Source of the DNA: Patescibacteria group bacterium
GTDB taxonomy: Bacteria > Patescibacteriota > Patescibacteriia > UBA1558
NCBI GenBank assembly: GCA_016784445.1
Contig: JADHUR010000001.1
Coordinates: 155,128 to 193,465, forward strand
Direction of reading: 5' to 3'
Length of the DNA stretch: 38,338 nucleotides
The position numbers and the translations under genes were made by a program. Every line of letters starts with the position of its first letter. Positions within the stretch are counted from its first letter, which is position 1. The notes under the pieces were generated by a model. That model had not been told where the DNA came from, did no database searches, and saw only the letters and a program-made list of their open reading frames with translations. Below, piece after piece: positions 17,479-30,089 of the stretch.

Positions 17479-17925
17479 TTACTGCTGCAGAATTATTACC
17501 TGCTCATAGGTTGTTTCTATCCAAGAATCATTTAACTCAGAAAAGAAACCCTCACCTAAAGATGAAATAAAAGTCTGAATAGCACCTCCTAAACTTTTAT
17601 ACACTACTATTTCAACTAGCAGCTCTTCATCTTCATAAAATACAGCTTCCTGTGTTTTAGTTTTCATACCGCCAATCCAGCTGTCAGAGAATACAACCAC
17701 TGCATCATTACCATACTCTGTAATATATACACCAATTGCTCTATCATTACCGTTAATAACACTAACCTGCTTGCCAGTGATTGCGCCAAAGTCAAATTCA
17801 ATTTCAATGTGACCAATCTCATACACCCCAACATTATTATCTGTAGTCAGATAATAGATATCTGGCTCAGGTGCAGCTTCCTGACATGACATGAAAAGTA
17901 CAACAATCAATATTAAAGCACGCAT
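17479..17925 (-). CDS. Hypothetical predicted lipoprotein (148 aa)
   Basis: MRALILIVVLFMS|C lipobox-like signal; SD AAGGAG at 17932-17937; beta-rich acidic mature part. Confidence 0.7.
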   Translation of the reverse strand: MRALILIVVLFMSCQEAAPEPDIYYLTTDNNVGVYEIGHIEIEFDFGAITGKQVSVINGNDRAIGVYITEYGNDAVVVFSDSWIGGMKTKTQEAVFYEDEELLVEIVVYKSLGGAIQTFISSLGEGFFSELNDSWIETTYEQVIILQQ

Positions 17926-17955
17926 TTTAAACTCCTTTATTCTTACGTTTATAAT

Positions 17956-17984
17956 ATTATATAAAAGAAAAAGGGCCGTATCAA
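17956..17984 (-). promoter_or_regulatory. Predicted sigma70 promoter for the lipoprotein gene, overlapping the upstream terminator
   Basis: TTGATA-17 nt-TATAAT. Confidence 0.6.
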
Positions 17985-18000
17985 TTTGCCGACCCTTTTT
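17963..18000 (-). terminator. Intrinsic terminator closing the unannotated minus-strand transcript
   Basis: AAAAAGGGTCG...CGGCCCTTTTT followed by CTTTT; one G-U pair forms only on the minus strand. Confidence 0.7.
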
Positions 18001-18249
18001 TATTGTATCAGCTTAATCTGAGAAATCTTGATCCAACAAGCAAGTAAGTATAACTTGACCCCAGACCGACTGCTGATACTATAAACAATTTAATGAACAC
18101 TATCCTACAAACCAGTGTAAGATGTTAATCACAAGGATTAAACACCTTAACTCAATAGCAATGAAAATATGAACAAGGAGGGGTGTCATAATTTCGACGC
18201 TACTGGCTAGTAGGATATTGTCCACTAATATTTGCGTTTCAATGAATAA
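17963..18249 (-). ncRNA. Candidate structured non-coding RNA (~290 nt), family unrecognised
   Basis: Own promoter and terminator; domain 1 is a ~27-bp stem (18090-18228) with internal hairpin 18118-18149; domain 2 is closed by GTATCAGC/GCTGATAC; several G-U pairs favour the minus strand. Confidence 0.6.
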
Positions 18250-18260
18250 TAAGGTATATT
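18232..18260 (+). promoter_or_regulatory. Predicted promoter for mfd
   Basis: TTGCGT-17 nt-TATATT. Confidence 0.5.
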
Positions 18261-18284
18261 AGCATAGAAATAAATACTTGTCAA
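18256..18284 (-). promoter_or_regulatory. Predicted strong sigma70 promoter driving the candidate ncRNA
   Basis: TTGACA-17 nt-TAATAT with TG extended -10; no annotated gene within 330 nt downstream. Confidence 0.72.
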
Positions 18285-18293
18285 GATGTAGCT

Positions 18294-21200
18294 GTGGAAA
18301 TTACAAGAAAATTGCCTAAAAAATACATTATTTCAGGCAATAACAATATTTTGAATAGAGCATATCTTACCCCCCTATTATATAAAAATGGGGTATTTTG
18401 GCATTGTGTAAGTAATGATTATGAAATAGCTAGATTGAATAAATTACTTAAATGGTGGTTTAAACAAGAAAAAATAAATAAGCCGAATATTTTACTTTGG
18501 CCAAATGATAAAGAATTAACACCTGAACATTATTACCATATTATATCAACAAGTAATAATATTATTATTACTACCCCAACTAATATATTATCTAAGACAA
18601 TTAATCTTAAGGAATTTGAAGATAATATAATACTAATACATAAAGGAGATAAACTAAATCTACCAGATATTAAATCTAGACTAATTAAGATTGGCTATGA
18701 AGTTAATACTCAAGCAGACGATAAGGGATTAATATCTTATCGTGGATTCATTTTAGATATTTGGTCACCTCAGTTAAATAATCCTATTAGAATAGAACTG
18801 GACAATGATACTGTAAAAGATATTTCTATAATAAATAATGAGACGAAAAAGAAAATTAAATCATTAGAAAGGGTTCAAATAATACAAGCTGTTCTTAATT
18901 CTAAATTAAAAACTCCCCTATTATCTATATTAGATAAACATAATATTTTAATAGATAATTCTGAAATAATTGAACATCCTGAAATTGAAGAAAGTTTTTT
19001 AAATAATATATATGCAATCAAACCTATTCATGAAGAAAAAAGTATAGCATCCCTCAGAAATACAGATTATTTTCATGGAAATCCTAGGGGGTTAAAAAAA
19101 TATATTGAAGATAATAAGCCAAATATTATTACACAAAGTAAGGATAGAATAGAACACTTATTAAATGAATTAAAAGTAAATACAAATATATCAGAATTTA
19201 AGGACTTCTTATTCCCAGGTATGGAAGATAGAAAGAGAGACAAGCATTATTTAACAGATATAAACATCTTCAAAGCAGAAGTAATAAAAGTCAATAAACA
19301 AGATAATGTTTATCAAGTAGATATTAATCAAGGAGACTTCATTGTCCATAGAGATCATGGTATTGCTAAATTTACAAAAACAGTTTTCCAAACTGTAGAT
19401 GGCATTGAAAGAGAATATTTTTTACTTCAATATAGGGACGAAGACAAACTATATTTACCAATAGATCAATTGGACAGAATAAGTAAATATCTTGGTATTA
19501 AAAATCCAAAACTACATAGACTAGGTGCTGCTTCAACTTGGCCACAGATAATCCGTAAAGTAAAAGAAGATATTATTAAAATGGCACAGCAATTACTTAA
19601 TCTATATGCTAGGCGCGAATTAAGTAAAGCAATGGCATTAAAACCCTTTATAGGTGAAGAAAAGAAATTAGCAAATAGTTTTCCCTATGAAGAAACACCA
19701 GATCAAAAAAGGGCACTAAAAGAAACATTAGATGATTTAAATAAAACAGAACCAACCGATAGATTAATCTGTGGTGATGTAGGCTTTGGTAAAACAGAAA
19801 TTGCAGTCAGAGCAGCATACAGAGCTGTTCTTAATAAGCAACAAGTTATACTACTCTGCCCTACTACGATTCTAGCTCAACAACATTATGATACTTTTAT
19901 TTCTAGATTTAAAGATTATTCTATTAATATTGCACTATTATCTAGATTTGTAGATACAAAAAAACAAACAGAAAATATATCAGATATTAATAGAGGTAAA
20001 GTAGATATAGTAATTGGTACGCATAGACTATTATCTAAAGACATTAAATTCAATAAAGCAGGATTAATAATCATAGACGAAGAACAACAGTTCGGTGTTA
20101 AAGATAAGGAAAAGCTAAAGGATTTAAAAACAACAGCCCATATAATAGCTTTATCAGCCACACCAATACCAAGAACATTAAATCTAAGTTTAAGTGGTAT
20201 ACGAGATATTAGTGTCATAGCAACTGCTCCTATTGGTAGATTACCAATTAAAACAACTGTGAAGAAATACTCTGAGGAGATTATTAAGGATGCCCTTAAA
20301 TTTGAACTTGAACGTAAGGGGCAAGCATATTATCTATATAATAAGGTTGAAACAATAGATGAACAGCTTAAGTTTTTAAAAAAACTATTACCAAATTATA
20401 CATATGGTATTGTTCATGGACAATTACCTTCAAAAGAAATTGCAGCTACTATGCACGACTTTGACATCGGTAAAATAGATATTCTTATTTGCTCTACAAT
20501 TATTGCTAATGGCCTAGACCTTCCCAATGTTAATACTTTAATAGTAACAGGGGCGCAGAACTTTGGACTGGCACAGCTTTATCAAATAAGAGGTAGAATT
20601 GGCAGATCACATAAACAAGCGCATGCCTATTTCCTTTATAATTCTCAAAAATTAAAAGGCCTTGCCGCTGAAAGACTACAAGCTCTCCAAGAAGCAGAAG
20701 CCTTGGGTTCTGGCTTTCAAATAGCTACCCGAGATATGGAAATAAGGGGTATTGGTAATATATTAGGGAAAAAACAACATGGTAAAGTTTCACTTATTGG
20801 ACTTACTCTTTATAATGAACTAATAAAACAAACTGTTAGTGAAATTAAATCTGGACTCATACCAGCTCCTTTAGTAGACGCAACTATAGACTTACCAATA
20901 AGCATTGGACTTCCTCAAGATTATCTCAAGTCTGAAAGTAGTCGTTTAAGATATTATCAGCTACTTGCTAATTGTAATGAAATAGATAAATTAGATAGTC
21001 ATTTCAAAAGATTGCCAAAGCCTTGGCCACAAAAAGTTAAAAACCTCAAAGAAATAACAGAGCTCCGAATACTTGCAGAAAAAGCTGGTATAAATTTAAT
21101 AACAGCTAAACATATTAGAAATGAACAATCTTTTAATATTTATTTATATATACATTTCTCGGAAGAATTAGATTATTCAATAGTAAGTAAACTTCTAAAA

Positions 21201-21323
21201 CAAAATTCTAATTGGGAATTTAAAGAGAATGTTCTTAAAATAGATAAAACAAAACTAGATAATAATTGGCTTACAAACTTAAAAAAAGTAATACAAATGT
21301 TTATTAGAAATGAATCAAATTAA
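18294..21323 (+). CDS. mfd: Transcription-repair coupling factor (divergent, shortened N-terminus)
   Basis: RID region (GDFIVHRDHGIAKF), GDVGFGKT, DEEQ, SATPIPRT, QIRGRIGRS, TRG motif (GSGFQIATRDMEIRG); GTG start. Confidence 0.95.
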   Translation: MEITRKLPKKYIISGNNNILNRAYLTPLLYKNGVFWHCVSNDYEIARLNKLLKWWFKQEKINKPNILLWPNDKELTPEHYYHIISTSNNIIITTPTNILSKTINLKEFEDNIILIHKGDKLNLPDIKSRLIKIGYEVNTQADDKGLISYRGFILDIWSPQLNNPIRIELDNDTVKDISIINNETKKKIKSLERVQIIQAVLNSKLKTPLLSILDKHNILIDNSEIIEHPEIEESFLNNIYAIKPIHEEKSIASLRNTDYFHGNPRGLKKYIEDNKPNIITQSKDRIEHLLNELKVNTNISEFKDFLFPGMEDRKRDKHYLTDINIFKAEVIKVNKQDNVYQVDINQGDFIVHRDHGIAKFTKTVFQTVDGIEREYFLLQYRDEDKLYLPIDQLDRISKYLGIKNPKLHRLGAASTWPQIIRKVKEDIIKMAQQLLNLYARRELSKAMALKPFIGEEKKLANSFPYEETPDQKRALKETLDDLNKTEPTDRLICGDVGFGKTEIAVRAAYRAVLNKQQVILLCPTTILAQQHYDTFISRFKDYSINIALLSRFVDTKKQTENISDINRGKVDIVIGTHRLLSKDIKFNKAGLIIIDEEQQFGVKDKEKLKDLKTTAHIIALSATPIPRTLNLSLSGIRDISVIATAPIGRLPIKTTVKKYSEEIIKDALKFELERKGQAYYLYNKVETIDEQLKFLKKLLPNYTYGIVHGQLPSKEIAATMHDFDIGKIDILICSTIIANGLDLPNVNTLIVTGAQNFGLAQLYQIRGRIGRSHKQAHAYFLYNSQKLKGLAAERLQALQEAEALGSGFQIATRDMEIRGIGNILGKKQHGKVSLIGLTLYNELIKQTVSEIKSGLIPAPLVDATIDLPISIGLPQDYLKSESSRLRYYQLLANCNEIDKLDSHFKRLPKPWPQKVKNLKEITELRILAEKAGINLITAKHIRNEQSFNIYLYIHFSEELDYSIVSKLLKQNSNWEFKENVLKIDKTKLDNNWLTNLKKVIQMFIRNESN

Positions 21324-29789: not shown

Positions 29790-29876
29790 GGGCGAGTGGT
29801 GGAACTGGTAGACACGTAGGTCTCAAAAACCTATAGGCGCAAGCCTGTGAGGGTTCGATTCCCTCTTCGCCCACCA
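29790..29876 (+). tRNA. tRNA-Leu(CAA)
   Basis: Acceptor GGGCGAG/TTCGCCC, anticodon loop CTCAAAA, long variable arm, GTTCGA T-loop, encoded CCA. Confidence 0.96.
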
Positions 29877-29877
29877 T

Positions 29878-29954
29878 GGCGGGGTAGCTCAGGTGGTTAG
29901 AGCGCAGCACTCATAACGCTGAGGTCGTGGGTTCAAATCCCACCCCCGCTACCA
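29878..29954 (+). tRNA. tRNA-Met(CAT), probably elongator
   Basis: Anticodon loop CTCATAA, paired 1:72, G2-C71/C3-G70, A73, encoded CCA; Ile2(lysidine) cannot be fully excluded. Confidence 0.9.
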
Positions 29955-29968
29955 AAAATTATGAAAAT

Positions 29969-29997
29969 TTGACAATTATTATCCTGCAAGATAATAT
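29969..29997 (+). promoter_or_regulatory. Internal promoter for tRNA-fMet
   Basis: TTGACA-17 nt-TAATAT. Confidence 0.65.
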
Positions 29998-30013
29998 ATA
30001 TACACAATTACAT

Positions 30014-30089
30014 CGCGGGGTAGAGCAGTTGGCAGCTCGTCGGGCCCATAACCCGAAGGTCGTTGGTTCGAGTCCAACCCCCGCTACCA
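30014..30089 (+). tRNA. Initiator tRNA-fMet(CAT)
   Basis: C1:U72 mismatch, three consecutive G-C pairs in the anticodon stem (TCGGG/CCCGA), CAT anticodon, encoded CCA. Confidence 0.96.

Follow-up and report, generated by a model that had tools for sequence, protein, structure and literature searches.

A predicted single-copy small RNA family with an anti-Shine-Dalgarno loop in the candidate phyla radiation

The window analysed here, a stretch of 38,338 nucleotides (nt) from a Patescibacteria group bacterium, comprises positions 155128-193465 of contig C7 in a genome assembly of 0.70 Mb and 20 contigs that is 92.5% complete (G000). On its minus strand, divergent from mfd, the window carries what is almost certainly a real, stand-alone and conserved RNA gene. 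By its sequence and predicted structure, the gene belongs to an uncatalogued family of small RNAs (sRNAs), encoded in single copy by Parcubacteria-type members of the candidate phyla radiation (CPR) and by further classes of the Patescibacteria, in which a hairpin loop displays the anti-Shine-Dalgarno (anti-SD) hexamer CCUCCU. The sole invariant sequence of the family is this hexamer, yet most genes in these organisms lack a Shine-Dalgarno (SD) site, and this ties the RNA to the questions of how CPR bacteria start translation and why some of them lose the anti-SD of their 16S ribosomal RNA (rRNA).

The CPR, or Patescibacteria, account for a large share of bacterial diversity and have minimal genomes. 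To our knowledge almost no regulatory RNAs have been described from them, and the RNA reported here would be among the very few lineage-wide noncoding RNAs there beyond rRNA, transfer RNA (tRNA) and RNase P RNA. New in the present analysis are the Y-shaped, mfd- and pth-flanked form of the RNA, its non-conserved second domain and its loop-E-like motif, together with the counts across class and phylum, the cross-tabulation with the 16S anti-SD, and the absence of the signal recognition particle (SRP).

Structure of the Conserved Core

The initial annotation divided the RNA into two structured domains and placed in the first of them a long outer stem, enclosing one hairpin and an unpaired C-rich stretch, ACCCCUCCUU. 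The outer stem (P1) and the enclosed hairpin, UAAGGUGUUUAAUC-CUUGU-GAUUAACAUCUUA (P3), are both present (Table 1), and the C-rich stretch is indeed unpaired in the minimum free energy (MFE) fold. What had been overlooked is that this stretch forms the apical loop of an additional hairpin, P2, so that domain 1 takes the form of a three-way junction, at most one nucleotide being unpaired on its 5' side, between P1 and P2. The CCUCCU of the P2 loop is identical to the anti-SD motif of 16S rRNA.

Table 1. Features of the RNA locus, in positions of the window (R1 and R2, covariance models described in the text)
Feature	Position	Strand	Remarks
Conserved core (domain 1)	18088..18232	-	Y-shaped, P1+P2+P3; R1 162 bits, R2 121 bits, z -7.1
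P1, 5' strand	18202..18227	-	Closing stem of about 27 bp; partner 18090-18116
P1, 3' strand	18090..18116	-	Partner 18202-18227
P2 hairpin	18157..18201	-	AGCG/UGCU, GAAA/UUUC, AUGACA/UGUUCAU and apical loop
P2 apical loop	18176..18183	-	CCCCUCCU, 8 nt, unpaired in the MFE fold; core CCUCCU at 18176-18181
P3 hairpin	18118..18149	-	UAAGG...CCUUA, loop UCCUUGUGA; helices 3-5 covary
Domain 2	18005..18079	-	Structured, lineage-specific extension outside the conserved family; z -3.5
RNA promoter	18256..18284	-	TTGACA at 18284-18279, 17-nt spacer, extended -10 TGcTAATAT at 18264-18256
Terminator-like hairpin and U-run	17963..18001	-	10-bp stem in the MFE fold
Second promoter, for the 148-aa gene	17956..17984	-	TTGATA-17-TATAAT, 11/12 matches
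148-amino-acid (aa) lipoprotein-like gene	17479..17925	-	MRALILIVVLFMSCQ...; no Pfam family; downstream neighbour of the RNA
pth (peptidyl-tRNA hydrolase)	16826..17428	+	Convergent with the RNA; synteny partner phylum-wide
mfd	18294..21323	+	Divergent from the RNA promoter

Predicted Transcription from the Minus Strand

The RNA is preceded, as initially described, by a TTGACA box and an extended -10 element that together score 10 of 12 against the consensus (TG extension at 18264-18263, TAATAT at 18261-18256), and its predicted transcription start lies near 18249. Only 20 promoters of this consensus, extended -10 type occur in the whole genome. The intrinsic terminator that had been proposed to end the unit is found in the MFE fold as a hairpin with a U-run near 17963; a consensus scan passes over it on account of its 11-nt loop. 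Within that loop lies the -35 box of the promoter that follows, the separate one already credited to the downstream lipoprotein-like gene. The predicted transcript of about 290 nt holds no conserved open reading frame (ORF): a 41-aa ORF at 18100-18225 was rejected as a coding gene, being unconserved, and in the relative G005 the frame GAT GGG CAG CAC CCT ATG AGC CAG TAG runs into a stop.

The minus strand is assigned as the RNA strand because covariance model R1, described below, scores it at 162 bits against 33 bits for the reverse strand, because the many G-U pairs are compatible with the minus strand alone, and because of where promoter and terminator lie. The folding of the two strands agrees with this assignment, which is also that of the initial annotation. 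The 287 nt of the minus strand reach an MFE of -91.2 kcal/mol, where dinucleotide shuffles give -58.4 +/- 4.4 (z -7.45; none of 200 shuffles as good), whereas the plus strand of the same 287 nt reaches a z of only -3.0.

The same arrangement recurs in relatives, most homologs having TTGACA-17-TGnTAAnnT about 20-25 nt ahead of P1. G005 and the same-genus genome G001, a metagenome-assembled genome (MAG) named 'Candidatus Komeilibacteria bacterium KTG4t2parc1' and placed by NCBI in the Parcubacteria group of the Patescibacteria group, have the same TTGACA-17-TGCTAATAT promoter and a terminator of their own straight after P1. In these two genomes the lipoprotein-like gene is missing and the RNA stops at its terminator facing pth, which upholds the earlier view of a stand-alone RNA rather than a leader.

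A Family across the Phylum

When the RNA was compared by BLAST with 60 relatives, domain 1 alone was found, at 83% identity over query bases 1-167 in G001 and faintly in G005. A covariance model built from the three sequences of the window, G001 and G005 (R1) located one copy in each of the six genomes of the family and, within the order, matched 22 genomes out of 86; family members outside its seed scored 28.9-63.8 bits. A further model (R2), with 21 sequences in its seed, matched 188 genomes out of 401 in the class, spread over 147 of 300 genera, nearly always once per genome. In a sample drawn from the whole phylum it matched 37 of 401, some of them in families that belong to other classes. 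Wherever more than 40 genomes were searched the filters were strict, and absences in these counts are soft. R2 scores the window at 18088-18232 with 121 bits (E 1.5e-28), the window sequence itself being in the seed. In G000 the element occurs once. The rarity implied by the initial annotation gives way, in these counts, to a single-copy family of phylum-wide distribution.

Among 80 pth loci from organisms with names, R2 matched Komeilibacteria, one Kuenenbacteria MAG and one MAG labelled 'Gammaproteobacteria'; it matched none of about 65 non-CPR loci and, at E<=1, none in Daviesbacteria, Levyibacteria or Saccharibacteria.

The locus with the gammaproteobacterial label (L064, 3440-3556, minus strand) is a 42-bit match beside pth on a 5.3-kb contig, CAYJWS010000071.1, of an 'uncultured Gammaproteobacteria bacterium'. 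Its pth is 45% identical to that of the window, and the label is probably wrong.

Anatomy and pair counts were taken from 76 aligned homologs. P1 measures 25-30 bp throughout, joins the 5' and 3' ends of the RNA and has conserved CU/AG and CAG/CUG pairs. The P2 loop varies between 8 and 11 nt and contains CCUCCU in 76 of 76 homologs, usually as CCCUCCU; the hexamer is predicted to be unpaired in every individual fold, and every homolog folds on its own into an equivalent shape that includes the P2 hairpin. Some lineages (L048, L052, L053, L176, L180, L181, L184) have only a small P3 or none at all, which gives forms of 109-124 nt. In most lineages (e.g., L039, L137, L145) P2 also has an internal loop, GGC-GAAA...(A)AGUA-GCC, which is degenerate in the window's own family. 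GAA/AGUA is the consensus of sarcin-ricin, or loop-E, motifs, which are typical protein-binding sites, and the internal loop of most members matches it.

The stems are compensated as well as conserved, a point on which the initial annotation had hung its proposal. Both sides have changed in 42 of the 43 modelled pairs, and in helix 1 (P1), which is 92% paired, in 26 of 27. Standard pairs fill 89.5% of cells, a share that drops to 64.8% in shuffles and to 36-49% once partners are shifted by 1-3 columns, and the covariation score is 0.708, against 0.257 in shuffles (none of 500 reaching it) and at most 0.19 with slid partners; the alignment behind all these counts was fitted to the model and leans towards structure.

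Domain 2 has a different history. Its four stems are present exactly as annotated; the idea of a conserved two-domain architecture fails, however, since the domain is missing from the same-genus genome G001, from G005 and from all other relatives. BLAST-type searches of relatives and family returned no homolog of it in the same genus, family or order. Because it has no homologs and folds only moderately above chance (z -3.5), domain 2 is best regarded as a genome-specific 3' extension or spacer. We treat it as a non-conserved addition of about 95 nt that lengthens the predicted transcript to about 290 nt, probably not a functional part of the family.

The RNA is absent from Rfam, as had been suspected. 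A scan of the whole window at gathering thresholds returned three tRNAs only, and Rfam 15 gave noise at E<=10 across 17850-18400 (best match Bacteroid-trp, on the plus strand, E 2.6). At E<=0.1 over 20 homolog loci, tRNAs alone reached the gathering score, the few other matches lying outside the RNA positions. In the literature we found no description of such an RNA.

Shine-Dalgarno Usage in the Source Genome

The 16S rRNA of G000 ends normally, in GGAUCACCUCCUUUCU, and only some 6-10% of its genes have SD sites. Upstream regions are A-rich and G-poor. A GGAG peak at -11 to -9 precedes about 37 of 591 first-ATG starts, and 10.8% of starts have an SD-like tetramer between -18 and -4; the in-gene control gives 8.3%. 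GGAGG followed by a start codon and an ORF occurs at about 70 sites. Many of the 20 consensus, extended -10 promoters sit before long leaders with AGGAGG, and the genes with such leaders include rpsU (bS21; start near C7:166760, minus strand), whose site, GGAGGUGA, is fully complementary. SD-led genes in general tend to combine such promoters with long leaders. Rare SD sites combined with a complementary rpsU site recall the Bacteroidetes.

Proposed Function

Since the P2 loop is invariant and exposed and genes with SD sites are few, the CCUCCU loop is perfectly complementary to the ribosome-binding sites (RBSs) of a small, leadered, SD-dependent set. The use of SD sites by only 6-10% of genes makes pairing or competition at these sites in trans the most likely role, and the suggestion of an SD-blocking regulator in the initial annotation survives as the best mechanistic reading, resting on the invariant unpaired hexamer and the roughly 70 GGAGG-plus-start sites. 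We hold to it tentatively, at or slightly short of an even chance. In the mechanism we envisage, transcription from a strong sigma-70 promoter would yield an sRNA of about 140 nt, or about 290 nt with the extension found here. The long P1 stem may protect both of its ends; we know of no sRNA chaperones in this lineage. The exposed P2 loop would then pair with the AGGAGG sites of the SD-dependent minority, and competition with the 30S subunit would lower or tune translation of the SD-led genes. As a whole, we judge this best explanation to be evenly balanced between right and wrong.

sRNAs with C-rich, anti-SD loops are familiar from other phyla: RsaE/RoxS (RF01820) and Listeria LhrC in the Firmicutes, 6C RNA (RF01066) in the Actinobacteria, and the 'cuckoo' CcsR or alpha-r14 RNAs, with CCUCCUCCC loops, in the Alphaproteobacteria. 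RsaE/RoxS, LhrC, 6C and CcsR share with the CPR RNA a stand-alone gene with its own promoter and terminator, a conserved C/U-rich hairpin-loop motif complementary to GGAGG-type RBSs, and SD occlusion as the expected action. The CPR RNA is not homologous to them, showing no similarity in sequence and matching none of their Rfam models at the thresholds given above. It also has one loop where they carry two to four repeated motifs, closes its ends with a stem of about 27 bp in a three-way junction, contains a loop-E-like internal loop in most members, and is single copy across a phylum of approximately 1-Mb genomes in which most genes are SD-less. The 3' end of 16S rRNA has the identical CCUCCU, and in some members the flanks match too, as ACCUCCUU; the anti-SD tail, however, is single-stranded and lies inside the 30S subunit, whereas the motif of the CPR RNA sits in the closed hairpin loop of a free RNA.

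Several observations weigh against regulation by mRNA pairing. The SD sites show no preference for GGAGGG, whose extra G would make the sRNA a better partner than 16S rRNA (15 of 70 are GGAGGG). Duplex energies separate no targets: the seed of 6-7 nt fits every SD site, and ranking by duplex energy is uninformative for that reason. The phylum-wide single copy, the conserved P1 nucleotides and the loop-E-like P2 loop look more like a protein-bound housekeeping RNA, and the lean of the pair counts towards structure, already mentioned, belongs on the same side of the balance. Signal-peptide-like N-termini were looked for separately and are not significantly enriched in SD-led genes (37% vs 29%, p 0.18), in a test whose permissive gene caller had a high false-positive rate (68 genes in the frame+1 null vs 93 observed).

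The strongest competitor, a housekeeping ribonucleoprotein or decoy, is distinctly less probable, at a real but minor chance. The RNA would here be bound by a conserved protein and mimic the 3' end of 16S rRNA, with no mRNA pairing, titrating or guiding a factor that recognises the anti-SD, such as the Era KH domain, bS21 or a nuclease that processes the 3' end or cleaves the anti-SD. One copy per genome, kept in roughly 1-Mb genomes of this class and others, fits such a role, as do a promoter of rRNA and tRNA grade, the exact retention of CCUCCU rather than of just a C-rich loop, the conserved CU/AG and CAG/CUG pairs of P1, the loop-E-like GAAA/AGUA in P2 of most members, and the close linkage with pth and der, both of them translation-related. 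That linkage may nevertheless be neutral, reflecting tight packing and a shared bidirectional terminator; the loop-E-like motif is degenerate in the window's own family, P3 is dispensable in several lineages, and no candidate protein partner was identified.

A housekeeping RNA of translation initiation, that is, a highly expressed, separate carrier of the anti-SD that either replaces a decaying 16S tail or governs the SD-dependent set as a block, seems improbable. About as doubtful is the narrower proposal that the RNA acts as an anti-SD in trans, standing in for the 16S 3' tail, or adding to it, where Parcubacteria are losing that tail. A published survey reports CCTCCT in the 16S rRNA of only 48% of Parcubacteria (Tsurumaki et al. 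2022; PMC9297842). We sampled 292 genomes of the class in which AAGTCGTAACAAGG is followed by at least 45 nt and sought CCTCCT 24-36 nt downstream; it was missing from 33 of them, clustered in families f10, f19, f47, f80, f93, f107 and f44. The RNA is present in 26 of these 33 (79%), against about 115 of the 259 with the motif (44%; odds ratio 4.65, p 1.8e-4); the RNA-positive genomes without a 16S 3' region number 47 by a hand count that may be off by a few. This association would fit the broader housekeeping reading as well. It is nevertheless concentrated in about seven families, and this clustering makes it phylogenetically confounded. Seven genomes have neither the 16S motif nor the RNA, and a normal 16S anti-SD coexists with the RNA in G000 and in more than 100 other genomes. 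It is on account of the family clustering, the double negatives and this coexistence that we rate an anti-SD in trans low; moreover, a free RNA is not known to have any means of positioning mRNA on the 30S subunit.

Gene Neighbourhood

Gene order around the RNA is widely retained. Among the 76 loci, pth is convergent and downstream in 61, often only a few bases from the 3' end of the RNA, der follows pth in 36, and mfd is upstream and divergent in 25. In the window der likewise lies beyond pth, on the plus strand, and in G001 and G005 the homolog stands between mfd and pth.

The 148-aa gene, which has its own SD (AAGGAG, 17932-17937), is not the unrelated neighbour for which it had been taken. 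Homologs of it, with proteins of 25-53% identity, lie downstream of the RNA and on the same strand in G002, G003, G065, G042 and G078, that is, with G000, in six genomes of three families; they are absent from G001, G005 and G004. The gene is by this distribution an old yet dispensable neighbour, not an insertion.

Such persistence raises the alternative that the RNA is the 5' leader of this lipoprotein gene family, its loop masking the SD of the gene it precedes. The downstream genes do have SD-like sites, and in G003 a lipoprotein gene begins 25 nt past P1, with no terminator between. Against a leader stand the terminator and convergent pth that follow the RNA in G001, G005, G004 and most of the 76 loci, and, in G000 itself, the intervening terminator and separate 11/12 promoter. 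A riboswitch or cis-acting leader was rejected on these grounds, and we consider the alternative very unlikely. Some lineages may couple RNA and lipoprotein gene by read-through, which nonetheless cannot be what the RNA does in general.

Comparison with Known Housekeeping RNAs

The thought that the RNA might be a highly divergent form of a known housekeeping RNA, 6S or SRP RNA, is more improbable again. In its favour, both slots look empty, Rfam finding neither 6S nor small SRP RNA in G000 and no small SRP RNA in 10 relatives, and the gene is single copy, with a strong promoter and a long closing stem. The initial annotation had described the RNA as possibly 6S-like, and it does resemble 6S RNA (RF00013) in being single copy, abundant-looking, closed by a long stem and of housekeeping-like distribution. 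Yet the 6S model has no match at E<=10 in G000 or in the region (a model of modest sensitivity, finding only 7 of 14 controls), and the RNA, a three-way junction and not a rod, has no central bubble. At 109-150 nt it is short for a 6S RNA, and its invariant loop motif has no counterpart in 6S RNA. We therefore reject 6S RNA.

SRP RNA was rejected as well, in agreement with the earlier impression that no SRP signature was present. The model for small bacterial SRP RNA (RF00169, Bacteria_small_SRP) has no match in G000 (E<=10) or in 10 relatives, single-contig genomes included (E<=1), and found 13 of 14 controls; the RNA has no GNRA-capped helix 8. The M domain of Ffh (PF02978) is absent from G000 and from 12 relatives of seven families, while all 14 controls were found, and no GTPase of the Ffh/FtsY type with a DTAGR motif is encoded in any frame of G000; with both missing, no SRP protein is available to bind such an RNA.

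As a separate observation, this CPR order seems to lack the SRP pathway, judging by the small SRP RNA model, the Ffh M domain and the DTAGR motif; neither FtsY nor the large model of SRP RNA was searched for by itself.

Transfer-messenger RNA (tmRNA), for which the initial annotation had likewise seen no signature, was rejected: ARAGORN finds no tmRNA gene in the G000 assembly, and the RNA has no tRNA-like end. Another reading takes the element for a decayed inverted repeat resembling a miniature inverted-repeat transposable element, or for no more than an insulator or bidirectional terminator separating pth from mfd. P1, a long and almost perfect inverted repeat with a convergent gene on one side and a divergent one on the other, would suit that reading, but the single copy, the strong covariation with 42 of 43 pairs compensated, the strand asymmetry, the invariant loop and the conserved promoter refute it.

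Other Features

On contig C18 of G000 (complement 12366-12444), beside a tRNA-Met gene, ARAGORN reports a tRNA whose anticodon is undetermined ('tRNA-??? (ga)'). In the window, three adjacent tRNA genes lie at 29790-30086 on the plus strand, one for Leu-CAA and two for Met-CAT, on which Rfam and ARAGORN agree.

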